A stretch of 64,000 nucleotides of DNA, taken from positions 2,210,021 through 2,274,020 of the forward strand of contig OY970321.1 of the NCBI GenBank assembly GCA_963716735.1. The letters run 5' to 3'. The notes under the pieces were generated by a model. That model was not told where the DNA came from. It did not search any database and saw nothing but the letters and a program-made list of their open reading frames with translations. A program made the position numbers and the translations under genes. Positions 2,481 through 32,340 of the stretch are shown here, in pieces. Positions within the stretch are counted from its first letter, which is position 1, and the number at the start of each line of letters is the position of its first letter. The stretch is from an uncultured Solirubrobacterales bacterium. Lineage in GTDB: Bacteria > Actinomycetota > Thermoleophilia > Solirubrobacterales > 70-9.

Positions 2481-4148
2481 CTAGCCGGCTTCGCGACCGA
2501 GGCCGCAGACCGTCGCCGGGCCGCCTTCGAGCTGCATCTTCCAGGGGACGGTGGAGAGGTCGCGGGGGATCGGCAGCGCCAGTGCTTCGCCGGCGCCGAC
2601 GCCCGTCTGGAAGTCGACCGGGAACTGCCTCCCCGTCGCGAACCGCCTCATCCTGATGTCGGTCACCGGTTTCGCGCCGGCGGCGATCGCGACACCGCCG
2701 GGCGGGACCTCGAACACGCGGGAGCCGGCGACGGCGAAGCACCCGTCGCTCGGTACCGCCGAGCGGGGGATCGGTTCGACCGCGATCCGCAGGGCGTTGA
2801 GCAGCACCTTGTCGGCGGCGAAGCGTGCGGGCTCCGGACTGCTCTGCAGCTCTGGGACGGTGAAGGCAGGAGAACCAAATGCGTCCACCGCGGAGAAATA
2901 GGAGCCGGCGTCGATGTGGTCGAAATTCGTATCGGCGAATTCCTCGTCGAGGTAGAAGCCCGGTTCGACCGTGTTCCTGGCGATCTCCAGTGCAGTCAGG
3001 TTCGCTTCGATGATCTGGCTGGTCCTCCGGTAGAAGTCATAGGACTGCTGGATGAGGAGTCCATTGCCGGCGAGCGAGACGGCGACGGCGATCAGCGCTG
3101 GAGGCAATAGGCGCCGGTCGAGCTTCAGGCCACTCAGCATTCCGGCGGCGACGAGCAAGACCATCGCCGCGCCGGGGTACTGGTAGCGGCTCGCCCACGG
3201 CACCCGGCCCGGCTTGACCGCGATCCCGCCGAAGACCCAGAACGCGATCGCGATCGCGATGACGACCCAGAGTGAGCGCGGGATGCGTTCGAGTTTGTAG
3301 AGGCGCCATGCCGCGAGCGCCCCGAGGCCGACGGCAAGCGGGCGCCCCCAGTCGAGGCCCGGCGGCGAGGGCAGGCCTTCGCCCATGGTCGCCAGGCCGG
3401 CCAGCGCTCCGCTCGCGGTGGCGAATGAGTCGAGCGCGAATATGGGCGCGGTAGCGATGTTGTGCAGTGTCACCGAGCTTTGGCCGCTGTTCCCCCAGCC
3501 GAGCCACCAGATCCCGTAGAGGACGACCGGCACCGCGACGACGAAGGCGCGCCGCCGCCAATCGCGGTCGGTCCGGCGCAGGACCACGTCCACGATGGCG
3601 CCGACGGCGAAGGCGAGCCAGAGGCTGGAGAAGAGCATCGCGCCGACCAGCCAGGCGCAGGCGAGGCGGTCGCCGACGCTGTCTCGCCGGTCGAGGGCCA
3701 CGAGCATGCCGAGGCCACAGGCCATCGAGCCGAGAAAGGTGATCGAGGCGAACCAGAAGAGGTCTTCGAAGGCTGCGCCGAGGAAGAGGATGGGCAGCGT
3801 CATCAGCAGGGCGCCCCAGCCGCCGATCCGGCGCCTGATCCAGACGAAGAGGAACCAGGCGCCGAGCAGGAGCATGGCGGTCGAGGCGATGCGGAAGGGC
3901 ACCAACGATCCCATGCCGAAGCCGGACAGCAAGAGCTTCCAGATCACGACCGCGCCGCCGACAAGGTGCTCGTTGGCCGGCGTCAGGAAGGCGTCGGCGT
4001 TGAAGTCGCGCCGGTAGAGGATGTAGGTCCAGTCGTCGAGGATGAAGGTCAGCCTCGAGCCGAGGACGACGATCACGACCCCGGCCACGAGCATCGCCGC
4101 CGCGAGCAGCAGCGACGCTGGGTTCTTCAGTCGGATTGCCCCGCCCAC
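2481..4148 (-). CDS. Polytopic membrane protein, possible GT-C-type (lipid-linked-sugar-dependent) glycosyltransferase
   Basis: 555-aa ORF with many hydrophobic segments in the N-terminal ~370 aa and a soluble C-terminal domain. An FILDDWTY motif follows the first TM, and an ALDRR motif comes later; both recur in the 26973-28727 protein. The start is GTG 4148; an alternative is ATG 4094 (MLVAGVV). Confidence 0.7.
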   Translation of the reverse strand: MGGAIRLKNPASLLLAAAMLVAGVVIVVLGSRLTFILDDWTYILYRRDFNADAFLTPANEHLVGGAVVIWKLLLSGFGMGSLVPFRIASTAMLLLGAWFLFVWIRRRIGGWGALLMTLPILFLGAAFEDLFWFASITFLGSMACGLGMLVALDRRDSVGDRLACAWLVGAMLFSSLWLAFAVGAIVDVVLRRTDRDWRRRAFVVAVPVVLYGIWWLGWGNSGQSSVTLHNIATAPIFALDSFATASGALAGLATMGEGLPSPPGLDWGRPLAVGLGALAAWRLYKLERIPRSLWVVIAIAIAFWVFGGIAVKPGRVPWASRYQYPGAAMVLLVAAGMLSGLKLDRRLLPPALIAVAVSLAGNGLLIQQSYDFYRRTSQIIEANLTALEIARNTVEPGFYLDEEFADTNFDHIDAGSYFSAVDAFGSPAFTVPELQSSPEPARFAADKVLLNALRIAVEPIPRSAVPSDGCFAVAGSRVFEVPPGGVAIAAGAKPVTDIRMRRFATGRQFPVDFQTGVGAGEALALPIPRDLSTVPWKMQLEGGPATVCGLGREAG

Positions 4149-4170
4149 GCCGGTAACCTATCTGCCCCTC

Positions 4171-5400
4171 TTGACGCTCCCCGCCCCATCCCCAGTCGCG
4201 ATCGAGGCCAGCGGCGTCGAGAAGACCTTTCGCATCCCCACCCAGCGGGTCGACTCGTTGAAGGAGCGGTTGACCACCTTCTCCGGCGGGGACTACCGTG
4301 AGCTGCGCGCCCTGCGAGACGTTTCCTTCGAGGTCGAGCGGGGGGAGTTCTTCGGCATCGTCGGCCGCAACGGCTCGGGCAAGAGCACCCTGCTGAAGAT
4401 CCTCGCCAGCATCTACGCGGCGGACGCCGGACGGGTGCGGATGGCCGGCCGCCTCGCCCCCTTTATCGAGCTTGGCGTCGGCTTCAACAACGAGCTGACC
4501 GCGCGCGAGAACGTCGAGCTGAACGGGGTGATGATGGGCCTCACGCGGCGCGACGCGCGCAGCCGCCTCGGCGCGGTGCTGGAGTTCGCCGAGCTGGAGG
4601 AGTTCGTCGACCTCAAACTGAAGAACTACTCCTCGGGGATGCTGGTCCGCCTCGCCTTCTCGGTGATGATCCAGTCCGACGCCGAGATCCTCCTGATCGA
4701 CGAGGTGCTGGCGGTCGGCGATGCCTCCTTCCAGCAGAAGTGCGCCGACGTCTTCTATGAGATCCGCGACTCCGATCGGACCGTCGTCTTCGTCACCCAT
4801 GACATGAGCGCGGTCGAGCAGTACTGCCACCGGGCGATGCTGCTTCACGATGGCGCTGTGCGGGCTATCGGCGCGGCCGACGAGGTGGCGCGCAGCTACC
4901 TTCGCCTCAACTTCGAGCAGGCTCCGAGCGACGGCGATGCAGATATGGGCGGGGTCGCCGACATCACGCTCAGCGACGTCTGGCTCGAGGACGGTGAGGG
5001 CCAGCGCATCACCAATGTCGAAAAGGGCTCTGAGCTGCGCTTCGGCGCGACGTTCGAAGCCCATCGCAAGGTCGAGGGCCCGAGCTTCGGGTTTGCTTTC
5101 ACCAACGCCGACGGGGTCGAGGTGACTGGGTTTGGCCTCGGCCTCTCCGGCGACGTACCCGACCTGCTCGAGCCGGGACAGCGGGTGAGCCTGAGCGGTG
5201 AGATCGAGAACCGGCTGGCACCCGGCCGTTACGTGACCAAGTGCTGGGTCCACCGGAACCACAACTTTGCCGACCTCGTCCTGCACTCGCCCCACGTGCT
5301 CGACTTCGTCGTCTACGGCAAAGACGGCGCGGGTGTGGTTGCTCTCAACCACGAGATCGTGGCGACGGTTGAGACCAAGGCGCCAGTGGAGGGATCGTGA
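4171..5400 (+). CDS. wzt: Polysaccharide/O-antigen ABC exporter ATP-binding protein with Wzt-type C-terminal extension
   Basis: Walker A GRNGSGKST, signature YSSGM, Walker B LLIDEVLAVGD, H-loop THD. About 150 extra C-terminal residues follow (ADITLSDVWLEDGEGQRI...FGFAFTNADGVEVTG...VLDFVVYG), beta-rich like the Wzt carbohydrate-binding domain. The start is uncertain. TTG 4171 is the first in-frame start not overlapping the divergent gene, and ATG 4042 would overlap it by 107 nt. Confidence 0.85.
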   Translation: MTLPAPSPVAIEASGVEKTFRIPTQRVDSLKERLTTFSGGDYRELRALRDVSFEVERGEFFGIVGRNGSGKSTLLKILASIYAADAGRVRMAGRLAPFIELGVGFNNELTARENVELNGVMMGLTRRDARSRLGAVLEFAELEEFVDLKLKNYSSGMLVRLAFSVMIQSDAEILLIDEVLAVGDASFQQKCADVFYEIRDSDRTVVFVTHDMSAVEQYCHRAMLLHDGAVRAIGAADEVARSYLRLNFEQAPSDGDADMGGVADITLSDVWLEDGEGQRITNVEKGSELRFGATFEAHRKVEGPSFGFAFTNADGVEVTGFGLGLSGDVPDLLEPGQRVSLSGEIENRLAPGRYVTKCWVHRNHNFADLVLHSPHVLDFVVYGKDGAGVVALNHEIVATVETKAPVEGS

Positions 5401-6248
5401 ACGCCGAGCCCTCGACCATGGAGTTGCGCGAGGTCACCGGCCCGTCCGCAATCGGCGGCGGTCGCCACCGCTTCTTCGAGTTGCTCTGGCTGATGTCGGT
5501 GACCGAGTTCAAGAAAACCTTCTTCGGCACCGTGCTCGGCTACGTCTGGTCGCTGATGCGGCCGCTGCTGCTCTTCGCCGTGCTGCTCCTCGTCTTCACC
5601 CAGGTCTTCAAACTCGGCAGTGAAGTGCCGCATTACGAAGTCCTGCTGCTCTTCAACATCGTCCTCTTCGGCGTCTTCCTGGAGGGGACCAGCGGTGCCG
5701 TTGGAGCGGTACTGGGGCAGGAGGGGATCGTTCGCAAGACCCAGTTCCCGCGCCTCGTCATCCCCCTCGCGGTCGTCCTGACGGCGGTCTTCACCCTCGG
5801 GCTCAACATGATCGTCGTCTTCGTCTTCATGCTCGCCTTTGGCATCGCGCCGATGTGGACCTGGCTTTTGTTCCTCCCGCTCATTCTCGTGCCGCTCCTG
5901 GTCTTCATCTGCGCCCTTGCGATGCTGCTCTCTGCGCTAAACGTCCGCTTCCGCGACGTGGCGATCATCTGGACGGTGGTGGCGACGGCGCTCAACTATG
6001 CGACCCCGATCCTCTATCCGCTGGAAATAATCCCCGAATCGCTGCGGCATGCCCTCATGGCAAATCCGCTTGCCCCCCTCTTCCAGCAGGCGCACATCTG
6101 GATGATCAATCCGCATGCGGAAGGTGTGCGGGCCGCCGCCGGTGGCCCCCTGCCGCTGATCGCCGCGGCCGTCATCTACGTCGTCGTTTGCGTTGCCGGC
6201 GTCTGGGTCTTCAACCGCGAGGCGCCGCGCATCGCCGAGCAGCTCTGA
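5397..6248 (+). CDS. wzm: ABC-2 type polysaccharide exporter permease
   Basis: 283 aa with six hydrophobic segments and an ABC-2 permease-like sequence (FRDVAIIWTVVATALNYATPILYP). The GTG start overlaps the wzt stop (GTGA at 5397-5400). Confidence 0.85.
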   Translation: MNAEPSTMELREVTGPSAIGGGRHRFFELLWLMSVTEFKKTFFGTVLGYVWSLMRPLLLFAVLLLVFTQVFKLGSEVPHYEVLLLFNIVLFGVFLEGTSGAVGAVLGQEGIVRKTQFPRLVIPLAVVLTAVFTLGLNMIVVFVFMLAFGIAPMWTWLLFLPLILVPLLVFICALAMLLSALNVRFRDVAIIWTVVATALNYATPILYPLEIIPESLRHALMANPLAPLFQQAHIWMINPHAEGVRAAAGGPLPLIAAAVIYVVVCVAGVWVFNREAPRIAEQL

Positions 6249-6297: not shown

Positions 6298-7425
6298 ATG
6301 AGAAAACTGACAGGGGCGTTTGTCGTGGTCGTGGCGCTGCTCGGGCTGCCGGCGGCCGCCGCCGCGGTTGGCCCGGCGCCGTCCGGTTTTGCCGTCGGAA
6401 TCTCGCCCCAGACGCCAGCCGGCAAAGAGGACTACGCGCTGATGGCGGAGGCGGGTCTGACGAGCCTGCGGCTGCCGCTTGGCTGGGGCAGCGTCGAGCC
6501 CCAGAGCCCTTACTTCGCCGCACCCGACTGGTCTGACTTCGACCGCTCCGTCGCGCTTGCCGCCGAATCCGGAATGCGCGTCTTCCCGTTCGTCTGGGGG
6601 AGCCCGTCGTGGGTCGCCGGCCAGGGGCTGGTGGAACCCGTTCGCAATGCCTGGGAGGGCCGCGCCTGGGCCTCCTTCCTGCGCCAGGCAGTACGGCGCT
6701 ACGGCCCCTATGGGTCCTTCTGGGGGGAAAACCCGGAGCTGCCATTCCTGCCGATCCGTGACTGGGAGATCTGGAACGAGGAGAACATCGTCACCTTCTC
6801 CGCGCGTCCCGACCCGTCGCGCTACGCGCGTCTGTTGCGGATCGCCGGCCGCGCCATCCACCGCGCCGATCCTGGCGCGAAAGCGATCCTCGGCGGCCTT
6901 TTCGGCCGCCCTCTGCAGGTGCCGCCAAACATTCCCTCCGGCGCCTTCCTCAACGGCGTCTACCGGGCCGGCCACATAAGGCCCTTCTTCGACGGCGTGG
7001 CGCTGCACCCCTACGTCGCCGATGCGAGCGCGATGGAACCTCAGATTCGCAACCTGCGCCGCATCATGCGGCGCCATCGCGACGGTGCCACGCCGATCTA
7101 CGTCACCGAGCTGGGCTGGGGCTCGGACAGCTTCCAGACCCGTTGGGAGCGCGGCATGTGGGGCCAGGCTCGCGAGCTCGACCAGGCCTTCTCGATGCTC
7201 ACCGACCACAGCCGCTCCTGGCGCATCGCCGGTGTCTGGTGGTTCTCCTGGGCCGACGCGGGCCGTCTTTGCCAGTTCTGCGATTCGGCCGGCCTGCTCA
7301 CCGGCGACCGCGAAGCCAAGCCCGCCTGGTACCGCTTCACCGAATGGACCGGCGGCGACCCCGAAATCGTCCCGCGCGTCAGCTTCGGCGAGGAACCGGT
7401 GGACGTCGTCGACTCAGCCGGCTGA
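6298..7425 (+). CDS. Secreted clan GH-A glycoside hydrolase-like protein
   Basis: ATG 6298 gives the signal peptide MRKLTGAFVVVVALLGLPAAAAAV. WEIWNEEN (acid/base Glu) and YVTELGWGS (nucleophile Glu) motifs are present. It is a paralog of 37669-38799. Confidence 0.75.
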   Translation: MRKLTGAFVVVVALLGLPAAAAAVGPAPSGFAVGISPQTPAGKEDYALMAEAGLTSLRLPLGWGSVEPQSPYFAAPDWSDFDRSVALAAESGMRVFPFVWGSPSWVAGQGLVEPVRNAWEGRAWASFLRQAVRRYGPYGSFWGENPELPFLPIRDWEIWNEENIVTFSARPDPSRYARLLRIAGRAIHRADPGAKAILGGLFGRPLQVPPNIPSGAFLNGVYRAGHIRPFFDGVALHPYVADASAMEPQIRNLRRIMRRHRDGATPIYVTELGWGSDSFQTRWERGMWGQARELDQAFSMLTDHSRSWRIAGVWWFSWADAGRLCQFCDSAGLLTGDREAKPAWYRFTEWTGGDPEIVPRVSFGEEPVDVVDSAG

Positions 7426-8301
7426 GCGGAAGAGATTGACCGAGCCGATGCGGCGCATCGCGTACTGGTCGTAGGGCAGGTCGCCGCGCCAGCGGTTGTG
7501 CGCCTCGGCGGAGACGAAGTAAGTCTCGGGGTCGCTTTCCATCGCCTCGATCTGGCCCGCCAGGTCCCGCTCGGAGAGGCCGAGGGCGGCGACGATCGCG
7601 TCGAGTTTCTCGCGGTGCTCCTCGGCGCCCCAGCCGGCGAGGACGTGATCGACGGCGTGGATCGAGCAGCCGTTGCGCTTCTGTACCAGCTCGTGGCCGG
7701 CTTCGACCACCCTGGCGACGTGCTCGAGTGGCACATGCTCGAGCACCGAGATCGAGAAGACCGCGCCGAAGTCGTCGCCGACGTCCTCGTTCGGTGGGAA
7801 GAGCTCGCGGACGAAATGCACATCGGGGTAGGCGCTCTGGAAGCGCTTGAACTCGCGCGGGCCGTTGCCGCCGCCCATGTAGTCGTCGACCACGGTCACG
7901 TCGTAACCGAGGCGCGAGAGCATCCCCGCTACCAGCGGCTCGCCGGCACCGATCTCGAGGATGCGGTCGCCGCGCTCGACGTTGCCGAGGATCGCCTTGA
8001 TCGCCCAGCAGCGCTGCAGGTCCTTCATGTCGAAGCTCGCTCCGGCGAGGCCGGTGAGGTGGTCGGCGCTGTCGGCGAAATCGCGCACGGTGCCATAGGA
8101 GATCGCTGCTAGCGGGAAGTCGCCGACGTAGCGCTCGGCGATCGGCCACAGCGCGCTGTCGGCGATCGTCCAGGCCGAGGCGTTGGCGCCGGGCGTCGCC
8201 CCCGAGGGGGCGTAGAGCGCGGCCTTGCCCGCCAGTTTGCGCAGCAGCGGCGAACGCGCCGCGGCGGCGCGCAGGCGTTGGGCCTGTGCCGTCGCGCTCA
8301 C
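7414..8301 (-). CDS. Class I SAM-dependent methyltransferase
   Basis: RILEIGAGEPLVAGMLSRLGYDVTVVDD ... FGAVFSISVLEHV (motifs I-III). I prefer GTG 8301, which forms a GTGA overlap with the upstream GT4 stop. The ORF track start is 8337. Confidence 0.75.
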   Translation of the reverse strand: MSATAQAQRLRAAAARSPLLRKLAGKAALYAPSGATPGANASAWTIADSALWPIAERYVGDFPLAAISYGTVRDFADSADHLTGLAGASFDMKDLQRCWAIKAILGNVERGDRILEIGAGEPLVAGMLSRLGYDVTVVDDYMGGGNGPREFKRFQSAYPDVHFVRELFPPNEDVGDDFGAVFSISVLEHVPLEHVARVVEAGHELVQKRNGCSIHAVDHVLAGWGAEEHREKLDAIVAALGLSERDLAGQIEAMESDPETYFVSAEAHNRWRGDLPYDQYAMRRIGSVNLFRSAG

Positions 8302-9482
8302 GCTGAGGAACCCACTGGCCGGCCGCTGGCCGAGCACTCGCGCAGGAACGCACCCAGCCCTTCGGCGTTCGCCCGCCAGCTCAGCTGCTCGGCGGCGAAG
8401 CGGCGCGCGCCGGCGCCGAGGCGCCCGGCCAGCTCGCGGTCGGCAAGCAGCTGTTCGATGTTGACGACGATCTCCATTGCGTTTCCCTGCTCCAGTAGGA
8501 GGGCACTCTCTCCGTGCGTGAGGTCATTGCCGATGTTGCAGTGCGGCAAGATAACCGGCCGCCCCATCGCCAGGAACTCCGGCAGCTTGGAGGGCAGGCG
8601 GTAGCGGTTGAAGTCATCGGGTGGCCCGGGCTGGACGTAGGCGTCGGCCATCGCCAGATAGGCGGGGATCTCCCGCCAGGCGATCGGGCCGAGCTCGATC
8701 ACGCCGTCGCCGAGGGCGCGGAAGGCGCGCGGGTCGGGCCCGCCGAATTCGGAATGGCCGAGGCGGACGAGGCGCACCCTGTGCCCGCGCCGCTGCAGCA
8801 GCTTGACGGCGAGGTAGAGGCTCAGCATCTCGTGCTGGTTGGCGTAGTGGATCGTGCCGTGGTAGACGAGGACGAAGTCCTCGGGCCCGAGGCCGAGTCG
8901 CTCACGCGGGTGTGGCTCGAGGTCGGGGTGGAAGCGCTCGAGGTCGATGCCGGGGCGAGCCAGCGCGTGCGGTCGGCCGGCACGGTTGAACTCGTTGAGC
9001 GCCTCCGTGATCACCGTGATCCCGGCAGCGCCGTCGAGGAACTCGCGGTGGTGGGTGGGGTGGATCAGGTCGGGTGGCGCGAGGCTGTCCTGCTGGCGTA
9101 GCGGCAGTCGCTGCAGTTCGGCCAGCGAGCGCCCCGTCGCCGATTCGATCAGCAGCTCCTCGTTGTCCTCGAGGTGGATGGCGTAAGGGGCGCCGAGTTG
9201 CCGCACCGCCTCCATCGTCATCCGTCGCACCGGCTCGCGCGGCGTCCAGCCGAGGACGATCGTCTCCCGCGGGTCGCGGCGCATCTCGCCGAGCTTGCGC
9301 TCGAGGTCGTCGTGGGAGATGCACTCGAAGCGTGGCTCGCCGACCGCCGCCGCTCGCGCCGGGTCGCCGCGCCCGGCCACGGTCACCTCCCAGCCGAGGT
9401 CGGTCAGCTCGTTGCCGAAGTGGTAGGCCTGGATCCCGCTGTTGACGTCGAACGGGCCGAAGTAGACGACGAGGAGCCTCAT
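8298..9482 (-). CDS. Glycosyltransferase family 4 (GT-B fold)
   Basis: 394 aa, MRLLVVYFGPF... The C-terminal half carries RLPSKLPEFLAMGRPVILP (an EX7E-like region). ATGA overlap with the upstream gene at 9479-9482. Confidence 0.8.
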   Translation of the reverse strand: MRLLVVYFGPFDVNSGIQAYHFGNELTDLGWEVTVAGRGDPARAAAVGEPRFECISHDDLERKLGEMRRDPRETIVLGWTPREPVRRMTMEAVRQLGAPYAIHLEDNEELLIESATGRSLAELQRLPLRQQDSLAPPDLIHPTHHREFLDGAAGITVITEALNEFNRAGRPHALARPGIDLERFHPDLEPHPRERLGLGPEDFVLVYHGTIHYANQHEMLSLYLAVKLLQRRGHRVRLVRLGHSEFGGPDPRAFRALGDGVIELGPIAWREIPAYLAMADAYVQPGPPDDFNRYRLPSKLPEFLAMGRPVILPHCNIGNDLTHGESALLLEQGNAMEIVVNIEQLLADRELAGRLGAGARRFAAEQLSWRANAEGLGAFLRECSASGRPVGSSA

Positions 9483-11254
9483 CGTCTCCCCAGCGGCGCG
9501 GTCGCCCGGTAGACCCGTTCGCGCCAGGCGGCCGGCACGTAGTCGGCCAGCTGTTGGGCGAAACCCGGGTTGAAGTAGGGGTCGCCGCGCATCAGCTCGT
9601 CATACCAGCAGTCGACGAAGAGAGCGCGGTCGACGGCGTCGGTGGCGGCGCGGCGGCCGGCGGGGGTGCGGTGGTTGACGAGACGCGGCCGCGGGGCGTA
9701 GACGGACTTGAGGCCGCGCTTGGCGAACCGCTGGCATAGGTCGTAGTCCTCGTACTCGCGGCCGTAGAACTCGTTGAAGCCGTTCTCGGCCTCGAAGTCG
9801 ACCCTGCGCACCAGCAGGCACTCGGCGCCGAGTGCCGAGACCTCGCGGGCGCAGGGGAGGGAGCCGTAGTAGCCGTCGCCATCGGCAGGGAAGCCGGCCA
9901 GCATCGCGCTCGCCGGGTCGCGGAGGCCGATGGCCACACCCGCCTGGTCGACCAGGCCGTCGGGCTTGGCCAGCAGCGGGCCGACGGCGCCCACGCCCGG
10001 CAGGCCGGCGTGGAGGACGAGCTGCTCGATCCAGTCGGGCTCGGCCACCTCGACCTCTTCGTCGAGGAAGAGCAGATAGTCGCCTCCGGCCGCGGCGGCG
10101 CCGACGTTGTTGGCGCGGCCGCGGCGGAAGGCACCGGGCTCGCCGGCGATCCAGGTCACCGCCTCGGGGAGCCAGGCCGGCGCCTCCTCGCCACGCCCGA
10201 TGACGATCGTCTCGAAGCTCGGATACGAGGTCAGCTCGAGCAGCGAGGTGAGGCAGCGCCGCAGGCCTCCCTCGCCGCCCCCTGTGGCGAGGACGACGCT
10301 GGCCTTGGCCTGGGGCACGGCGCCGTTGCGCGGCGCCAGGATCGCTCGGTGGGGGATCGCCGGGTGGGGGACGGCCTTGGCCTCGACGCCGAGCCGCTCG
10401 AGGTGATCGCTCACCGCCCTTGCCTGCAGCTCCTCAACCCCCGACTTCTGGTCGGTGCCGGCGGCGATGCTGCCGGGTATCGCCCGCCAGTGGTAGAGCG
10501 TCTGCGGGATGTGGTGGATGCGCTCGGTGCGCTCGGAGACGCGCAGGAAGAACTCGAAGTCCTGGATCGTGTCGAAGGCGGGGTCGAAACCGCCGGCCGC
10601 CTCGGCGAGCGAGCGCCGGACCACCAGCAGGTGGCCGATGTACATCGCGCCGAGAGCGTAGACCGGCGACCAGTCGGGCTTGAGGAAGGGGTCGGCGCGG
10701 ACGCCGTGCGCAGTCAGCTTGTCGGAATCGGAGTAGACGACGTCGAGCTCGGGATCGGCGGTGAGCGCTTGGGCGACACGCAGCAGCGCGTCGGGCGTGA
10801 GCGTGTCGTCATGGTCGAGGAAGCCGACGAACTCGCCGTCGCACATCTCCATGGCGGCGTTGGTCGCCGCCGAGATGCCGCGGTTCTCGGCGGCCGGCTC
10901 GAACTTGATCCGCGGGTCGGCGTCGGCGTAGCGCTGGACCGCCGCGTTCAGCCCAGGCTGGCCGGAGCCGTCGTCGACGATGCACAGCTGCCACGCCGGG
11001 TAGTGCTGGGCTCGCACCGACTCGATCGCCTTGGCCAGATAGCCCAGGTCGGACTTGTAGGTCGGCATCGCCAGTGAGATCGTCGGTTGCGACTCGAGCG
11101 CCGCGACTTCCTGCAGGGCGGCTTCGCGCTTGGCCCGGGGTCGGCTGAGGTGAAGTTCCTGTCGCAGGCGGCGGGTCAGGTCCCTGAGGCGGCGCAGGAA
11201 GGCGAAGGCGCGCGGGGGGAGAAGCGATTTGAGCGAGCGGATATCGCGTGGCAT
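9479..11254 (-). CDS. Two-domain glycosyltransferase family 2 (tandem GT2 modules, rhamnosyltransferase-like)
   Basis: Module 1: ISLAMPTYKSDLGYLAKAIESVRAQHYPAWQLCIVDDGS...FLDHDD. Module 2: ASVVLATGGGEGGLRRCLTSLL...YLLFLDEEV. It lies in the same reading frame as the upstream 76-aa ORF, separated by a TGA and one codon. Confidence 0.85.
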   Translation of the reverse strand: MPRDIRSLKSLLPPRAFAFLRRLRDLTRRLRQELHLSRPRAKREAALQEVAALESQPTISLAMPTYKSDLGYLAKAIESVRAQHYPAWQLCIVDDGSGQPGLNAAVQRYADADPRIKFEPAAENRGISAATNAAMEMCDGEFVGFLDHDDTLTPDALLRVAQALTADPELDVVYSDSDKLTAHGVRADPFLKPDWSPVYALGAMYIGHLLVVRRSLAEAAGGFDPAFDTIQDFEFFLRVSERTERIHHIPQTLYHWRAIPGSIAAGTDQKSGVEELQARAVSDHLERLGVEAKAVPHPAIPHRAILAPRNGAVPQAKASVVLATGGGEGGLRRCLTSLLELTSYPSFETIVIGRGEEAPAWLPEAVTWIAGEPGAFRRGRANNVGAAAAGGDYLLFLDEEVEVAEPDWIEQLVLHAGLPGVGAVGPLLAKPDGLVDQAGVAIGLRDPASAMLAGFPADGDGYYGSLPCAREVSALGAECLLVRRVDFEAENGFNEFYGREYEDYDLCQRFAKRGLKSVYAPRPRLVNHRTPAGRRAATDAVDRALFVDCWYDELMRGDPYFNPGFAQQLADYVPAAWRERVYRATAPLGRR

Positions 11255-11257
11255 CGC

Positions 11258-11488
11258 TCAGCCTCGGCGCAGCTTCGACAGCGCGGACCGCAGCGGCCTG
11301 GTCAGCCGCCAGCTCAGCGAGGTCTCGTAGGTCTGGGCAACCTCGATGACCTGCTCTTCGAGTTCGCCGATGCGGAAGTTGCGGCGGCTGAGCTCGCGAT
11401 GGAACTCCTCCCTCTGCGCGTCCAGCTCCGCCCGGTGCCGCGCCTCGGCCGCGCTCAGCTGGTCGCTCGTCTGGGTCCCGGCGCTCAT
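11258..11488 (-). CDS. Small coiled-coil protein ending in an SWRLTRPLR motif
   Basis: 76 aa. Heptad-like charged helix (AEARHRAELDAQREEFHRELSRRNFRIGELEEQVIEV) followed by SLSWRLTRPLRSALSKLRRG. It is first in its operon, 39 bp from divergent rmlA. Confidence 0.55.
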   Translation of the reverse strand: MSAGTQTSDQLSAAEARHRAELDAQREEFHRELSRRNFRIGELEEQVIEVAQTYETSLSWRLTRPLRSALSKLRRG

Positions 11489-11527
11489 CGCGGCCTATCG
11501 TAGCCACGGTAGGGTTGCAGCCTCGCA

Positions 11528-14452: not shown

Positions 14453-15000
14453 TGCCGCGGCGGTTGGAGACCAAGCTCGACGGCGTCGTCCTGCTCGAGC
14501 CCGAGGTCCACGGCGACGATCGCGGCTTCATGGTCGAGACCTATAGGCGCGACACCTGGGCAGAGCTCGGTATCGACGTCGAGTTCGTCCAGCACAACCA
14601 TTCGCGCTCCTCAAGAGGAACGTTGCGTGGCCTTCATTTCCAGACCGAGCCGGGCCAGGCGAAGCTGGTCCGCTGCCCGCGCGGCAAGATCTTCGACGTC
14701 GCCGTCGACCTGCGCCGTGCCTCGCCCACCTACGGTCAGTGGGAAGGACACGAGCTCGACGACGAGACCCACCGCCAGCTCTTCGTCCCCGTCGGCTTCG
14801 GCCACGGCTTCGCCGTCCTCAGCGACGTCGCCGACGTCACCTACCTCTGCTCGAGCACCTACGACCCGGCGACCGAGTCCGGCATCGCCTGGGACGACCC
14901 CGACGTCGGAGTCGAGTGGCCGGTCGACGACCCCCTGCTGAGCGAGCGCGACAAGCAGGCCCCGGCGCTTAGCGAAGTAGCCGAGTCACTGCTGTTCTAG
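14452..15000 (+). CDS. rmlC: dTDP-4-dehydrorhamnose 3,5-epimerase
   Basis: ATG 14452 (TGATG junction with rmlB). DDRGFMVETYR, RGLHFQ, QAKLVRCPRGKIFDVAVDLR and VPVGFGHGF are present. Confidence 0.92.
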   Translation: MPRRLETKLDGVVLLEPEVHGDDRGFMVETYRRDTWAELGIDVEFVQHNHSRSSRGTLRGLHFQTEPGQAKLVRCPRGKIFDVAVDLRRASPTYGQWEGHELDDETHRQLFVPVGFGHGFAVLSDVADVTYLCSSTYDPATESGIAWDDPDVGVEWPVDDPLLSERDKQAPALSEVAESLLF

Positions 15001-17303
15001 CTCTGGGGGTATCCAGCCAAGATTCTGCGGCGAAGGCCGCGCAGGCTCCGCCTCGCGGCTTCCGACCAAAGATGTTTCACACGCACCGTCCCAAGGGCGA
15101 CCTGCGGATCGCTTGTCGCCAGCACCTGCTCGTGCCAGGCAACGGTATCCGCGTAGTGTTGTTCATGCCAGGCATTGGCGTCGGCCAGCGTCTTCTCTGC
15201 CCACTCGGCGACCTCGTCGTGCGCGCGCTGCAGGAACTCCAAATCTTCGTTCGGTGCGGCAAATGCGACGAGGCACTCCCAGAGCGCTATTCGCTCGCTG
15301 CGGTCCAGTTCGACGTCGACGAGAATCTCGTCGACGATCCGGCGACGCAGCCGGAACTTTTGGGCGGGGTCTTTCGTAAGCGTGGCGAGTCGACCTCCGA
15401 CTTCGGTCCGGTACCAGAACAGCGGCCGTGGAACGACATCTATGTCGAAGCCGGCGAAGGCGATCTTGGCCAGCGTCTCCCAGTCCTCGTGTGGGGAGTT
15501 GGGGTCGGTCTCAAAGCCACCCACGGCGCGGAGGGCGTCCGTTCGGTAGAGGGCGCAGGTGTCACCGAAGACATTCTCAAGGGGCGCCACGATGCGGGGA
15601 CCTCCGGTGGGGGCATAGCGGAAGGCGTAGGACTCGGTCTCGATGTCGGCCTCGTTCACGAAAGCGAGGGTCTGACACGTCGCCACATCACGCGAAGGAT
15701 CGGTCTGGACTGCCCCCAGTAACGTTTCTACCAACTCTGGATGTGCGACATTGTCGGAGTCGAATGGAAGGAAGTGCGAGCCATTGGCGAGCTCGAGACA
15801 GCGGTTTCGGGCCGCGCCCGGTCCGGCGTTTTCTTGGCGCAGGAAGGTCCACTCTGGATAGCGTGCCTCCAAGGCATCGAAGACCTCGGCGGCGCTCGGA
15901 TCGGTAGAGCCGTCATCGATCACAAAGACCTCATCGGGTTGATGCGTTTGACCGGCAATCGAATCCAACGCCGATGGAAGGAACGCCGCGTGGTTGTAGT
16001 GGGTGACCGCCACGGAGACAGTCGCTCCCTCAGGTGGTTTCGGGGTGTAGCTCAGTCGTTCTTGGTGAAAGCGCGCTACGGCCTCTCGATAGCTCGCCTC
16101 CACCCCGTCGTTCCAGCGCTCGTGGTCGCACACCTCGGAGACCTCCCGTCGAAGCCGACGCTCGTTGTCGGGGTCGGCAGCAAGCCGCTCCGATATTGAG
16201 GTGGACAAGTCCGCAGCCGTGGGATCGAAAAGCCAGTTTTGCCTGGCTTCGCAATGCCGTACGACCTCGGGTATGCCCCCGGCATGCGCCGCGATGAACG
16301 GGATCCGATTGGCGATGCACTCCGCAACCGTGAAGCCGAAAGTCTCGCTCTGGGAGGCGATGATGGCCAGCGTGTCGCCGCTTGCCAACTTTGCCAAGGC
16401 TGCCTCCCGGTCCAGCTCATCCTCGATCTCAAAAGGCCGGTCTCCTAGGCGCTCGCGGATGATCTCGCTCGCGCTCCGCCCGTCCATCCTCGTATCGCGG
16501 CCGAGGAAGACGACCGGAAGCTTCTCTGGCACCGAATCCAGCGCGTCGAGGAAGATGTCCAGGCCCTTGCGCCGCTCCAGCCGCCCGAAGAAGGCGAGCT
16601 TGCATAGTTCGGCCGTTTGTATGGTCGGCTCTGGCTCTGGATCTGGGAAGGGGTAGGTGACGAGAACATCGTCCCGAACTTCCCATCCGATGGAGCGGGT
16701 GTCCTCGACCATGTAGTGGGAAGGGCTGAGCTGCAGGTCGGCTCGCTCGAAGGCGTAGCGCTCGCACCACTCGAGCTTCAGGTCCCACGGCGACTTACGG
16801 TCGGCGAGGTTGCCCCGGCGCTGCCAATCGGTCGTGCTGTGGAGCTTCACCGCGAGCGCCACATCGTCGAAGGCCAGGCCGGATCGTTTGGCCTGGGCGC
16901 TTCGAAGCCCGAGAGCACGCCAATCGTGGAACTCGATGATGTCGAAGGAATGCTCAGCATTGAGCCCTTCCAGTGCTTCCATCGCCAGCTGGCTGAGGTG
17001 GAGGTCGTGCATGCCGTCGCCGTAGCTGTGGATGTCCGCCCAGGCCGGTGCTGGAAGTTCTTCCAGCCAGGTGAATGTCACTCCCTCGGAGGCCATCCTC
17101 GCGGGCATCTCCGCCATCGCCTGCTCGTCGTCCGCCGCGCCGCAGAACAGCACGTGCACCTCCCAACCTCGCTTCGCGAGGAGTCGGCTCATCAGCCAGA
17201 AGTGAGTGCCGATCCCGCCGTTGCGGATGACGCTCACGAAGTCGGTGGTCACAAAGCAGATGCTGGGTGCACCCTCTTTTTGCCGGACCTCGGTCGGAGC
17301 CAT
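14997..17303 (-). CDS. Bifunctional glycosyltransferase (N-terminal GT4 + C-terminal GT2) with helical tail
   Basis: GT4 part: ICFVTTDFVSVIRNGGIGTHFW...SQSETFGFTVAECIANRIPFIAAHAGGIPEVV. GT2 part: VSVAVTHYNHAAFLPSALDSIAGQTHQPDEVFVIDDGSTD...FDSDN. The start is taken at ATG 17303 (MAPTEV), 2 nt after the upstream stop; ATG 17315 is an alternative. The ORF track extension to 17549 overlaps the upstream gene. Confidence 0.8.
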   Translation of the reverse strand: MAPTEVRQKEGAPSICFVTTDFVSVIRNGGIGTHFWLMSRLLAKRGWEVHVLFCGAADDEQAMAEMPARMASEGVTFTWLEELPAPAWADIHSYGDGMHDLHLSQLAMEALEGLNAEHSFDIIEFHDWRALGLRSAQAKRSGLAFDDVALAVKLHSTTDWQRRGNLADRKSPWDLKLEWCERYAFERADLQLSPSHYMVEDTRSIGWEVRDDVLVTYPFPDPEPEPTIQTAELCKLAFFGRLERRKGLDIFLDALDSVPEKLPVVFLGRDTRMDGRSASEIIRERLGDRPFEIEDELDREAALAKLASGDTLAIIASQSETFGFTVAECIANRIPFIAAHAGGIPEVVRHCEARQNWLFDPTAADLSTSISERLAADPDNERRLRREVSEVCDHERWNDGVEASYREAVARFHQERLSYTPKPPEGATVSVAVTHYNHAAFLPSALDSIAGQTHQPDEVFVIDDGSTDPSAAEVFDALEARYPEWTFLRQENAGPGAARNRCLELANGSHFLPFDSDNVAHPELVETLLGAVQTDPSRDVATCQTLAFVNEADIETESYAFRYAPTGGPRIVAPLENVFGDTCALYRTDALRAVGGFETDPNSPHEDWETLAKIAFAGFDIDVVPRPLFWYRTEVGGRLATLTKDPAQKFRLRRRIVDEILVDVELDRSERIALWECLVAFAAPNEDLEFLQRAHDEVAEWAEKTLADANAWHEQHYADTVAWHEQVLATSDPQVALGTVRVKHLWSEAARRSLRGLRRRILAGYPQS

Positions 17304-17305
17304 CG

Positions 17306-18040
17306 TCAGGCGCATCCGTCGCGGACTCTCTTCGGCGATGCCATATAGAGAGTCGCCCGGCCGTTCCAGTAGCTGGCGACATTGCGCACATCGAACCCGG
17401 CGGCCTCCAAAAGCGCGCTGACATAGTCGCGGGTGAAAAACCACCACCAGGCCTCGTAGGGGTTCCAACCCTCGCGCTGCAGATCCCACTCCTCGCCGAC
17501 CGCGTGGTTCACGCCGTACGCAAACGGCGCCCCGTTTTCGCGCAGCCACTCACCGAGAATGACACGCTGACTGTCGGTCATCGCCGGAACGAGCAGCGCC
17601 GTGCCCGGTTCGACGCTGATGGCTCCGGCGGAGGTGGCGACGGTCTCGGGCATCGTCGCCGTGCCCAGTATCAGGGTCCCCCGAACTAGTGCGCACAGGT
17701 TGCGCAGCGTGCGCAACGGTTCGGGACAGTGGTAGAGGACACCGCTGCAATGGACGGCGTCGAAGGAGCCGACTTTGTCTACGAGCGCGTGATCGTCGAC
17801 GCTGCCGTGAATGCAGCGTACGCCCGCCACACCGTGTTCCTCCAGCCGAGACTCGAAGGCTCCCCAGAGATCTTCGGGGCCGCCCTCGGGCGCGATGTCG
17901 ATCATCGTCAGGTCGGTGGCACCGGCAGCAGCAGCAACGGTGACTTGCTCATTCACCACCCCCCAAAGACCGCCCACCTCGGCAAAGGAGCTACCAGAAG
18001 CAACCGCCGCGATCCAGCTCTCCCTGAGGCCGTCTCCCAC
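17306..18040 (-). CDS. Putative class I methyltransferase-fold protein
   Basis: 244 aa. SFAEVGGLWGVVNE...DLTMIDI...FDAVHCSGVLYHCPEPLRTL resembles MTase motifs I, II and post-III. It is the first gene after an AT-rich spacer. Confidence 0.55.
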   Translation of the reverse strand: MGDGLRESWIAAVASGSSFAEVGGLWGVVNEQVTVAAAAGATDLTMIDIAPEGGPEDLWGAFESRLEEHGVAGVRCIHGSVDDHALVDKVGSFDAVHCSGVLYHCPEPLRTLRNLCALVRGTLILGTATMPETVATSAGAISVEPGTALLVPAMTDSQRVILGEWLRENGAPFAYGVNHAVGEEWDLQREGWNPYEAWWWFFTRDYVSALLEAAGFDVRNVASYWNGRATLYMASPKRVRDGCA

Positions 18041-22636: not shown

Positions 22637-24022
22637 CTATCTCATCATGTCGCGGGCTGCACGGAGGACGTTCAGAACTCTCCATCCCCGGGTCGCATGG
22701 ACCGCGGCGAGCTCGCGCTCGGCGTCCTCGGCGCGCTGCTGTGCCGTCGCCAGCTCAGCCTCGAGCCCGGAGATCTCCAGGCTCTCGGCAAGCGCCACCG
22801 ACAGTGCGGCGCGTCCTCGCTCGAAGCGCTCGGCGACCTGCCGCGACTGTGTCCGCAGATGCGAGACGAGCTCAGTACGAGTTGGCCCGTCGACAAGGGC
22901 CTCGACCGCGGCCGGGGCGTCCTCCGCGGTGCCTGGAATGCCCACTCTGCCCGGTTCAAGCTGGAAAAGATCGCGCAGGCCGGCCGCCTTCTGCGCGTAG
23001 TAGTCGTTCTGAGCCAGCATCACCGCGGGGATGCCGGCAAGCAGCGAGGTGAGGGTCACGTGGTAGGAGCAGCTCACGGTGAGCCGCGCGCGCCGGAACT
23101 GCGACAGGCTATGGCCGATCGCGTCATCCAGGATGTCGAGCGGCTCTATCGGCCTCAGGCCCACCTCTTCCAGTTGGTCGCCCTCCCTCTCGAGGAGGTC
23201 CGCGACGACCGAGCGCTCGGACACCCGCGGGTCCTCGTAGGCGATCACCGGCTGGAGCTGGAGCGGCTCGCTGCTCGCAGCCGCCAGCTCCTTCACGAGG
23301 GCGACGATCCTGTTCTGGATTCCCTCGGCATCGTCACTCACCCACTCGCCGTCGTTCACGTGGAGGTTGACCATGGCGCCGCTCTCCACGGTTTGCTTCT
23401 CCAGGAAGGGAAGCGCGTCGTCCCCGGCCAGCTCGACGCGATCAGCGACGGCAGGTACCTGCCGTCGCAGGTAGCGCAGCGAGTCGATGTCGCGCACCCC
23501 AATCCAGGAGGCGCGGGAGAGAAGGTCATGCGCGGGTCCATCTGGAGCGATCGCGGCCTCGTCTACCTGGAGGCCAGAGGCGACCACGGGTAGGGGGCGT
23601 CCGCCGAGAAGGTGCTGGGCAGCATTCGCGTGCGCGGTCTTGCGGACTCCCCACCATCGGTTCAGGTGGCCGCCCCCGTAGATGTAGAGGGCGGCCTTTA
23701 CGGAATCGTCTCGAAGCGTCTCCAGCTCGACCAAGCCAGCTTCGGGAGCGCCGGAGTGGTCCTGAAAGAACGCGAACGCGGCCCCCTCAAAACGCTCGGC
23801 GTAGCGTCCCATTAACTCGCTGTGATGCTCTCGCGTCTCCCACTCGACGATGGCGACTGGGAGGGGCGACCTCGGCAGTCGCTTCACCGTCTCGATCGCA
23901 GTCGCCAGCTGCAATACGTCGCCGTAGTTCCCCGAGCCGTCGTAGCCGCCGACGAGAAACAGCACGGATTCCGCATCCATCACCTGTTTGTTGTCGGCGG
24001 GAGATGCCCAGAGAGACGGCAT
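22637..24022 (-). CDS. Polysaccharide pyruvyl transferase family protein with C-terminal coiled coil
   Basis: VLFLVGGYDGSGNYGDVLQL (GxxNxGD), IGVRDIDSLRYL (RDxxS), SCSYHVTLTSLLAGIPAV. Last ~45 aa: ISGLEAELATAQQRAEDAERELAAVHATRGWRVLNVLRAARDMMR. Confidence 0.8.
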   Translation of the reverse strand: MPSLWASPADNKQVMDAESVLFLVGGYDGSGNYGDVLQLATAIETVKRLPRSPLPVAIVEWETREHHSELMGRYAERFEGAAFAFFQDHSGAPEAGLVELETLRDDSVKAALYIYGGGHLNRWWGVRKTAHANAAQHLLGGRPLPVVASGLQVDEAAIAPDGPAHDLLSRASWIGVRDIDSLRYLRRQVPAVADRVELAGDDALPFLEKQTVESGAMVNLHVNDGEWVSDDAEGIQNRIVALVKELAAASSEPLQLQPVIAYEDPRVSERSVVADLLEREGDQLEEVGLRPIEPLDILDDAIGHSLSQFRRARLTVSCSYHVTLTSLLAGIPAVMLAQNDYYAQKAAGLRDLFQLEPGRVGIPGTAEDAPAAVEALVDGPTRTELVSHLRTQSRQVAERFERGRAALSVALAESLEISGLEAELATAQQRAEDAERELAAVHATRGWRVLNVLRAARDMMR

Positions 24023-31700: not shown

Positions 31701-32340
31701 CGGTCCCGACGATCCGCTCATCTACAACTCGGAGCAAATTGCGTTCCTGGGCTGGATCGAGGCATGTCCGATCCTCCCGCGTGCGAGCGAGATCATCCAT
31801 ACAGGCCCCTGGGCGGTGGTCGCGCTCCATCGCCGGGTCAACCGCGCGGTGTGGAAGCACAGCTATCGTGCCGACTCGCCGCTGCGGGCGGAGGGGGAGG
31901 GAATCGCGCTGGGCTTGCTTCAGCGCCACGCCGGTCCCGGGGCGGTTGCGCTCCGACTTCGGTCCGACGGCCGCCTCGCCAGCGAGCTCGTCAACCCGGG
32001 ACGCGCCAGCCGTGACCCGCGCAAGATCGGGCGTTGGGTCGCAGAGCCGCTGCACGCAGAGGATGCTGGACATCGAGCTGTCGGCGCCGGATCACGTCTG
32101 CGCCACCTCGCGAGCAACTTTCGAGGGCGTCGCCTCGCGACGGAGGAGGGCGAGGTTCTCGGCTATCTACGGCGCCAGACCATGTCCGGCTGCAGCACCC
32201 TCTACAGCACGATCCACCCTGTCACCGGCGATCAGCTCGTCACCCGCTTCCCGTCCGAGGCGATAGACGCCGGCTATGTGATGGACGGCATCCTGGGGGC
32301 GATCTTCGATCCGCCCGGCGATTCGACTCGAACTTTCTAG
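28741..32340 (+). CDS. Giant multidomain glycosyltransferase (GT4 + GT2 + ~550-aa C-terminal region of unknown function)
   Basis: GTG 28741. GT4: ILYLAPWVDLGGSDRG...SVYEGIPLVIYEALAMGVPVVAPALPGNVE. GT2: VGVIVPCYRHGIFLDACIASIKAQTL...VVVDDGSKD...PIDADDEL...EDWDL. From about residue 650 I recognise no catalytic motif. Confidence 0.8.
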   Translation: MSDERTPILYLAPWVDLGGSDRGTIDWFKNIDLSRWAPSLITTTPSPNRWLHHVEPYAEEIWNLPDLMPGAAFPEFILGFIESRQVGVVHIMNSRLGYDLLPDMTCLPEPPAIVVQLHAEEPNQTGYVRYVTRRYGNLIDSFSVVSENLKQTIVDYEIPPSRIEVIYLGVDSREEFDPERVEPLELPGNGASRILWPGRLVEQKDPMLTLEVLARVRERDEDFVLDVVGDGHLKEPARARAEELGVADVIQWHAPSQDMARWYRSSDLLLMTSVYEGIPLVIYEALAMGVPVVAPALPGNVEFMDADSGVLVDPRDDVDRYAEAIVSLLGDDERRREMGERSRKRMLEQFSLAEMGRRHDALYERLLSEQTASSRWRNEELFGEEDPGHREPSSAPPAPLRLSRDPLPEPTVGVIVPCYRHGIFLDACIASIKAQTLTPSQIVVVDDGSKDAETVAALARLDDDPQVTVLRQPRNSGPSAARNRALAQLKTSYFLPIDADDELLPDALERMLAQLEGAPEEVGFVYPNAQHVGNQMNYVQSPAYNVWLLMEQNYCPAPALFDRRLFEGTGVSYPEEIVVGHEDWDLILQLAERDVRGIPANGPTFLYRKQGFSRVHAVDYGPESFEKTIERRHPHLYLDRDDLKAKWAPALSLVLLDEEGDTWKADDLSGLTRQTCRDFELLAGTDLGGRVRLVEGPGKLSIAWLQAAIDRARGRWILLLPHSAFPILESSSFVEQLIHAFSANEGATAIVLADSTEIARPLFSQLDNAERLRAQPAAIAFERPLWGRVPEITLGVEASLLADLVVGLRVIGPAQWRVAPGVDGGGPWRQRVEPEDHPAMIDVNVPVPADKADAAMRHMVAHQPPRLPELTPGTVRRWKQSEPWTPPQTRLLCRHLDLKTGFRMITPERKPPSGYRFERVLGCTQIFAAPGMSRLVHANHSFELTDEQGALPDGQFDMGYVEQQPLPQLEGLELRRVPETGQEILVAGPDDPLIYNSEQIAFLGWIEACPILPRASEIIHTGPWAVVALHRRVNRAVWKHSYRADSPLRAEGEGIALGLLQRHAGPGAVALRLRSDGRLASELVNPGRASRDPRKIGRWVAEPLHAEDAGHRAVGAGSRLRHLASNFRGRRLATEEGEVLGYLRRQTMSGCSTLYSTIHPVTGDQLVTRFPSEAIDAGYVMDGILGAIFDPPGDSTRTF

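Follow-up and report, generated by a model that had tools for sequence, protein, structure and literature searches.

When a short gene ends at a stop codon that lies in frame with the start codon of the next gene, are these two genes, or one gene that has been split or is read through? This question is raised by a locus in a 64,000-nucleotide (nt) stretch of DNA, hereafter the window, from an uncultured Solirubrobacterales bacterium (contig OY970321.1, positions 2,210,021 to 2,274,020). Here a 76-codon open reading frame (ORF) for a small coiled-coil protein stands directly upstream of a gene for a two-domain GT2 glycosyltransferase (GT). The original prediction, made from the sequence, was that the small ORF, its TGA, a GCG triplet and the ATG of the GT2 gene all share one frame, and it left three readings side by side: a recent nonsense mutation, low-level read-through of the TGA, or two genuinely separate, tightly coupled products. 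The minus-strand reading and the coordinates bear out the common frame, as the two start codons are 234 nt, or 78 codons, apart (11488 - 11254). The features concerned are as follows.

11258-11488, minus strand: small gene, 76 codons plus TGA, for a free-standing coiled-coil and tail protein (ATG 11488-11486; sense codons 11488-11261; C-terminal end ...SWRLTRPLRSALSKLRRG)
11252-11260, minus strand: junction TGA-GCG-ATG, made up of the small-gene stop (11260-11258), a 3-nt spacer (11257-11255) and the GT start (11254-11252)
9479-11254, minus strand: two-domain GT2 of 591 amino acids (aa) (stop 9481-9479; N-terminus MPRDIRSLKSLLPPRAFAFLRRLR...)

We regard it as nearly certain that these are separate, coupled genes. 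The third reading is strongly supported by comparison with relatives, in which the stop and the GT start are kept in 26/26 genomes and the spacer and the phase vary.

The junction in the window and in related genomes

The comparison set consisted of the window and 25 Solirubrobacterales-type loci from a scan of species-representative genomes, three of them congeneric genomes that were also compared individually. Throughout these 26 genomes the small ORF had a stop of its own (TGA in 25, TAG in one), and the GT start, MPRD or VPRD from an ATG or GTG, was kept. The distance from stop to start varied widely, being -1, 1, 2, 3, 4, 5, 8, 9 or 13 nt, and relative to the small ORF the GT was found in phase 0 in 5/26 genomes, in phase 1 in 12/26 and in phase 2 in 9/26. 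The in-frame share thus falls short of the one third that chance would give, phase 0 being, if anything, under-represented. In the three congeneric genomes (GTs 76-82% identical), the small ORF was present, 67-75% identical and closed by its own TGA, and gaps of 4, 5 and 2 nt placed it and the GT in different frames. A tree of concatenated proteins further revealed changes of phase between sister loci (L035/L036, L024/L034, L040/L041/L042 and L044/L046). The separate stop persisted even where identity of the small protein falls to 44-48%, and also at two loci that are more distant, and in L046 the stop and the start overlap as TGATG. The TGA-GCG-ATG junction itself is common to the window and its nearest relatives, L053, L054 and L055, which form a well supported clade with small proteins 90-99% identical.

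Alignment with orthologues, which the original prediction had proposed as a check, therefore revealed two separate genes of differing frames and spacing. Judged from this comparison, the shared frame is without meaning and here is a one-in-three accident, common to the closest relatives alone. Such a frame across a TGA is ordinary, and recognizing it as such guards against annotating the pair as a pseudogene or a recoding site.

The stop codon at 11258-11260 was also compared with independent data. Contigs of four independent metagenome runs, ~90-99% identical and derived from relatives of the strain rather than from the strain itself, cover 11244-11280; they agree on the stop, with no listed change or indel at 11252-11260, indicating that the TGA is not an assembly artefact. 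A search for a sequencing run that contains the source organism was negative, with 0.26 as the highest share of sampled words. We further checked the phase count against nine loci (L022, L023, L024, L026, L028, L034, L036, L039 and L044) that come from short-read assemblies, to judge by their contig names (k141, k133, k97). Their gaps of 2, 3, 4 and 5 nt were spread like those of the long-read metagenome-assembled genomes (MAGs), and the variation is therefore not sequencing noise.

Two oddities were met in the compared loci. The GT ORF was shortened in some long-read MAGs (458 aa in L037, 407 aa in L041 and 335 aa in L043), which is probably the result of assembly frameshifts rather than a sign of real pseudogenes. 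One small ORF and GT pair (L045) was carried on a 4.5-kb contig of a MAG titled Syntrophothermus sp. (Bacillota), and it groups with actinobacterial sequences; the Bacillota label is probably a binning error, or possibly reflects gene transfer.

How do the two other readings fare against these data? A recent nonsense mutation that cut an N-terminal coiled coil off a longer GT would explain the in-frame arrangement, which is its sole support. However, the stop is found in all 26 genomes and in the two more distant loci, and the ORFs are in different frames in 21/26. No uninterrupted orthologue was found in the 26 genomes, and a search of 5.8 billion sequences with the read-through chain as query returned no protein of 368-1170 aa matching residues 1-76. 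The small protein alone, in contrast, is a gene of its own in 205 clusters of free-standing homologues of 75-85 aa, and it is under purifying selection, as described below. A recent split is refuted by these comparisons, and the probability that we leave to it is close to nil. Low-level or programmed read-through, by which the clade would make a functional fused coiled-coil-GT2-GT2 isoform akin to the single-chain methyltransferase/coiled-coil/GT2-GT2 protein of Klebsiella O7, has somewhat more in its favor: TGA is generally the leakiest stop codon, and the in-frame junction is present here and in the three nearest relatives. SRSWRITRPLR repeats, moreover, lie ahead of the GT domains in a distant protein (P0175), and single chains of a coiled coil and two GT2 modules work in Klebsiella O7 and O12 (PMC11231755). 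Nevertheless, the in-frame state is not conserved, falling below the chance share and flipping between sisters; the fused protein was not found in the search mentioned above; and in every genome the GT has a conserved start codon of its own. The fold of the junction RNA was not stable and showed nothing unusual (z-score +0.27), with no stimulatory structure, and an Rfam search of the junction gave no match. Read-through as a selected mechanism accordingly did not hold up, and we consider a functional fused isoform very improbable.

Selenocysteine insertion at the TGA was a further candidate and was rejected, as the downstream frame differs in the same 21 genomes.

Expression signals ahead of the two genes

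Upstream of the small gene, a hexamer resembling a -10 element was recognized.

11497-11502, minus strand: TACGAT, a -10-like hexamer of the TANNNT type in the sequence, 8 nt upstream of the small-ORF ATG

The same element, TA[CG]GAT, stands 8-9 nt before the ATG or GTG of the small gene in 25/26 loci, the exception being L038, and it is also found upstream of the small gene in the distant locus L051. In actinobacterial promoters, a TANNNT -10 element lies about 6-7 nt before the transcription start, and leaderless mRNAs are frequent. By this rule, the observed spacing predicts a leader of 0-3 nt. Since the hexamer leaves no room for a Shine-Dalgarno sequence, the first cistron probably has no leader or almost none, and TACGAT would serve as its promoter element. 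A scan for E. coli-type -35/-10 promoters came back empty, which is to be expected where a promoter has no -35 element.

Only 39 nt (11489-11527) separate the small gene from the divergent rmlA, and this intergenic region is highly conserved across genomes. It contains one TANNNT-like hexamer per direction: for rmlA this is TAGGGT, 12 nt upstream of the ATG, and for the small gene TACGAT. From this layout, the region may contain back-to-back short-leader promoters, neither gene having room for a normal Shine-Dalgarno leader. In L055, rmlA and the small gene are separated by a gene for an AAA_14/DUF4143 ATPase (73-1380); the sequence upstream differs there, yet TACGAT is found 9 nt before the small-gene ATG.

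Before the GT start, a Shine-Dalgarno 4-mer core (GGAG, GAGG or AGGA) was detected in only 6/29 loci. Because a good Shine-Dalgarno sequence is usually absent and the gap is -1 to 13 nt, translation of the GT2 gene is most likely coupled to termination on the small ORF, that is, by termination-reinitiation. The pair resembles translationally coupled bacterial operon pairs with a near-abutting stop and start, with which it shares the scale of the gap, the TGATG of L046 and the weak or absent Shine-Dalgarno sequence. The small protein is encoded by the first, probably leaderless, cistron of a conserved four-gene operon, and the GT2 starts at its own ATG or GTG, most likely through this coupling.

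The small protein and its relatives

The small ORF has guanine-plus-cytosine (GC) fractions of 0.68/0.52/0.92 by codon position, versus 0.74/0.49/0.92 in the GT2 gene, and this resemblance indicates that it carries the local coding signature. An alignment of 31 close homologues contained 32 invariant residues, including REEFHRE, RIGELE and LSWR..P.R. The median pairwise ratio of nonsynonymous to synonymous substitution rates (dN/dS) was 0.26 over 324 pairs, with a median dS of 0.72. By these measures of codon and residue conservation, the small ORF is a real protein-coding gene under purifying selection. Pfam and NCBIfam hold no family for its product, the ESM Atlas returned just unnamed actinobacterial clusters at scores below 0.9, and a literature search for SWRxTxPLR or SWRIT-type motifs as strings found nothing relevant. 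The protein can be divided into three parts.

11321-11476, minus strand: long helix, residues 5-56, with an AlphaFold2 predicted local distance difference test score (pLDDT) of ~78-81
11288-11320, minus strand: SLSWRLTRPLR motif, residues 57-67, at the helix break, defined from the alignment
11264-11317, minus strand: basic amphipathic tail helix, residues 58-75, a candidate membrane foot from hydrophobic-moment analysis

The best heptad pattern runs over ~residues 29-54 (F29, L33, I40, L43, V47, V50 and Y54), with 8/12 hydrophobic a/d positions and ~4 good heptads. In the motif, L58, S59, W60, R61, P65 and R67 are invariant among the 31 sequences. Residues 58-75 of the tail have a hydrophobic moment of 0.68 and a net charge of +6, values reached by 1.5% of shuffles. 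The AlphaFold2 model, computed for the read-through chain from an alignment that mixed paired and unpaired sequences, placed a break at S57 and a helix at 58-73 with lower confidence, and both GT2 domains were modeled confidently. The model and the heptad and hydrophobic-moment analyses together uphold the description, given in the original prediction, of a basic helical stretch after a coiled coil.

The partner GT carries a GT2 region at residues 60-173 and a second GT-A region, a Glyco_transf_21 match, at residues 387-543 (Pfam). Among solved structures, the two-domain chondroitin polymerase 2z86/2z87 is the best relative, and the 591-aa protein is a probable polymerase. The ~55 residues before its first GT2 domain form basic amphipathic helices, with an N-terminal hydrophobic moment of 0.6-0.7 and a charge of +4 to +6; the first ~40 residues are of this basic, amphipathic character.

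The nearest functional parallel to this pair is WbdD, whose non-catalytic C-terminal part holds the polymerase WbdA at the membrane. In E. coli HS (serotype O9), wbdD lies directly upstream of wbdA, with 14 nt from its TAA stop to the TTG start. As in the WbdD system, the gene for the small protein is directly upstream of a gene for a polymerase with several GT modules, in a locus that depends on an ATP-binding cassette (ABC) transporter with a cap-binding domain on Wzt. In WbdD, a coiled coil is followed by a membrane-associated amphipathic segment (PMC3482155, PMC11231755), and a like order is predicted for our protein. In E. coli HS WbdD the coiled coil terminates in ...EIEKIHRSRSWRMTKGYRYLGLQIHLL..., and S-x-S-W-R-x-T closes the coiled coil in both, as SRSWRMT in WbdD and SLSWRLT in the window protein. 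Unlike WbdD, the window protein has no terminating methyltransferase, kinase or Kdo transferase head, its 76 aa comprising a helix and a tail in which neither Pfam nor NCBIfam recognizes a domain. WbdD has Gly and Tyr in place of the conserved Pro and Arg of TxPxR; moreover, the window organism is a Gram-positive-type actinobacterium and the pathway is one of rhamnose, not mannose.

In Klebsiella, terminator, coiled coil and GT modules occur joined or separate, and ORF6 of O7 and WbbB of O12 are single chains in which two GT modules stand behind a coiled coil and a terminating head (PMC11231755). The K. pneumoniae O7 and O12 proteins resemble our pair in the order of a coiled coil and two GT2 domains, in a rhamnose-containing glycan and in the use of Wzm/Wzt (PMC11231755). 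A fusion of the window pair would yield just this architecture. The modules are covalently joined there, whereas all genomes examined here encode the coiled coil separately.

We also surveyed the occurrence of the module outside the compared loci. Searching 1.84 billion representatives with the profile produced 57 matches, mostly of 45-102 aa, and in 15/18 of the longer ones the module was at the very C-terminus. Several methyltransferase-like proteins (P0134, P0139, P0141, P0148 and others) share the full-length module (profile positions ~5-77) with REEFxRE and SLSWRxTxPLR, and in P0134, P0139 and P0141 it stands behind heads of the Methyltransf_11/12/23 type. The gene for P0148 takes the place of the small gene in its operon and is followed directly by orthologues of the GT2-GT2, GT4 and methyltransferase-like genes. 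These module-bearing proteins carry an N-terminal head of 120-250 aa, compared with which the window protein is the headless form. Internal occurrences were limited to motif-length repeats (SRSWRITRPLR) in P0161 and at the N-terminus of P0175. Within the order, a match to the module was present in 44/301 sampled genomes, often at the end of a 300-500-aa open frame. Patchy distribution of this kind is usual for glycan loci.

The repeats in the two distant proteins are arranged differently. P0175, a multi-GT protein of 1346 aa, has three ~60-residue tandem repeats at residues 80-250, ahead of its WbsX-GT4-GT2 domains, and P0161 has two copies inserted inside a GT2 at residues 145-235. Each copy ends in LE(G/R)SRSWRITRPLR followed by RRLLRR. 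The motif can therefore be repeated and internal.

The glycan locus and a proposed role for the small protein

The operon encodes, in order, the small protein, the GT2-GT2 protein, a GT4 and a methyltransferase-like protein, and other genes of glycan synthesis and export lie around it.

8298-9482, minus strand: GT4 glycosyltransferase, the start of which overlaps the GT2 stop by 4 nt
7414-8337, minus strand: methyltransferase-like protein of 307 aa, the last gene of the operon, 53% identical to its positional counterpart in L048
11528-12604, plus strand: long-form rmlA (TIGR01208, 2.4e-146), divergent and 39 nt from the small gene
4042-6248, plus strand: Wzt (ABC ATPase plus Wzt_C glycan-cap-binding domain; PF00005 and PF14524) and Wzm (ABC-2 permease; PF01061)
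32337-33632, minus strand: QueC-like enzyme, C-terminus ...ILESRSWRMTAPMRKAGAALRRRRSSS, a catalytic protein bearing the same tail

Downstream of rmlA, up to 15000, lie rmlD, rmlB and rmlC (RmlD, dehydratase and epimerase domains). The four-gene order is kept in the distant loci L048 and L051, both with the GT4 at the same position; L051 encodes an 88-aa small protein with Wzm next door, and L048 a 251-aa head-bearing form with a GT that is 53% identical. GT2-GT2 paralogues of the same genus (35-39% identity) have no upstream small ORF.

A genome-wide scan with the strict motif gave two credible coding matches, the small ORF and the QueC-like enzyme, which ends in SRSWRMTAPMR and a basic tail. 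Looser tails close two other proteins of the window: a pyruvyltransferase (22637-24022, minus strand) closes with a coiled coil and GWRVLNVLRAARDMMR, and an 850-aa GT4-GT2 protein (14997-17549, minus strand) has a basic RRSLRGLRRRIL tail. Judging from these tails, a single docking or membrane-foot device may be common to several enzymes of the locus.

On this basis we propose that the small protein oligomerizes through its helix, that its basic amphipathic tail would lie on the cytoplasmic face of the membrane, and that it would dock or organize the dual-GT2 polymerase, serving a pathway that makes a rhamnose-containing glycan and depends on an ABC transporter. It may likewise dock further enzymes of the locus that bear such tails. 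It would in this way do the job of the C-terminal part of WbdD minus the terminating head. Whether it truly acts as such an adaptor, a headless stalk and foot for the polymerase by analogy with WbdD, we judge to be evenly balanced; weighed together with this less certain function, the reading of separate, coupled genes is still a likely one. The small protein represents an unnamed, well conserved family with a WbdD-type closing motif, a predicted amphipathic foot and no catalytic head, and in the Wzm/Wzt glycan loci of soil Actinomycetota its gene always directly precedes the one for the two-module polymerase. Should it indeed recruit the polymerase, scaffold and terminator functions, which the Gram-negative models combine, can be divided between proteins, and the 76 residues would offer a minimal object for studying how such polymerases are retained at the membrane.

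Several points weigh against this proposal. The AlphaFold2 model says nothing usable about how the small protein and the GT might touch, its junction is disordered (pLDDT <50), and the helix of ~50 residues is far shorter than the ruler of WbdD. When the family profile was aligned with the C-terminus of E. coli HS WbdD by hhalign, 19 columns around SWRxT were matched with a probability of 12% and an E value of 0.0025; since this alignment covers the motif alone, we claim the likeness to WbdD as functional analogy and not as family membership. The leaderless start, the coupling, the oligomerization, the membrane binding and the docking of the GT are all steps that we infer from sequence. As to the separate genes, ordinary leakage of the TGA may give rise to a trace of fused product in the clade.

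Two other roles for the small ORF have to be weighed. As a regulatory upstream ORF, it would set the expression of GT2 through the act of its translation, and the peptide would be functionless. Its position as first cistron, the probably leaderless start, the 3-nt gap and the weak Shine-Dalgarno sequence before the GT would all suit such a role. However, the strong conservation of the amino-acid sequence, seen in the invariant residues and the low dN/dS, and the recurrence of the module as a C-terminal tail of methyltransferase-like and QueC-like enzymes are those of a protein module, making a purely regulatory ORF highly unlikely; regulatory and protein roles can coexist. Somewhat less remote, and still improbable, is a role as a chain-length ruler or a partner of the terminator, in which the helix would join the coiled-coil tails of the finishing enzymes (QueC-like, pyruvyltransferase and methyltransferase) and the polymerase in one complex, beyond anchoring the GT2. 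This idea draws on the second window protein that ends in the same motif, on the two others with coiled-coil or basic tails and on the probable capping of the glycan, since Wzt carries a cap-binding domain. In known systems, too, a coiled-coil protein integrates termination and polymerization (PMC11231755). A ~50-residue helix with no catalytic head nevertheless cannot alone space a terminator from the membrane, and a tail of this kind is lacking in the operon's methyltransferase-like protein.

Compared with the adaptor role that we favor, a broader scheme is speculative and, taken as a whole, rather unlikely. Here the small protein would be a hub whose helix and tail join the dual-GT2 polymerase, the QueC-like enzyme and the pyruvyltransferase into one membrane-bound assembly, as a headless WbdD with the scaffold apart from the terminator, and where the clade shares the in-frame TGA, occasional read-through may yield, in addition, a polymerase isoform that is covalently tethered.

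The last gene of the operon has features of its own. Its product (7414-8337) gave no Pfam match, the counterpart in L048 has a weak Methyltransf_23 match, and a glycine-rich stretch, EIGAGEP, resembles an S-adenosylmethionine (SAM)-binding motif. From its sequence and setting, it is a candidate for the capping methyltransferase whose product would be read by the cap-binding domain of Wzt. Relocation of a head from the small protein to the end of the operon was also considered and found to be unsupported, as the methyltransferase-like heads of the P0134-type proteins are unrelated to this last gene.

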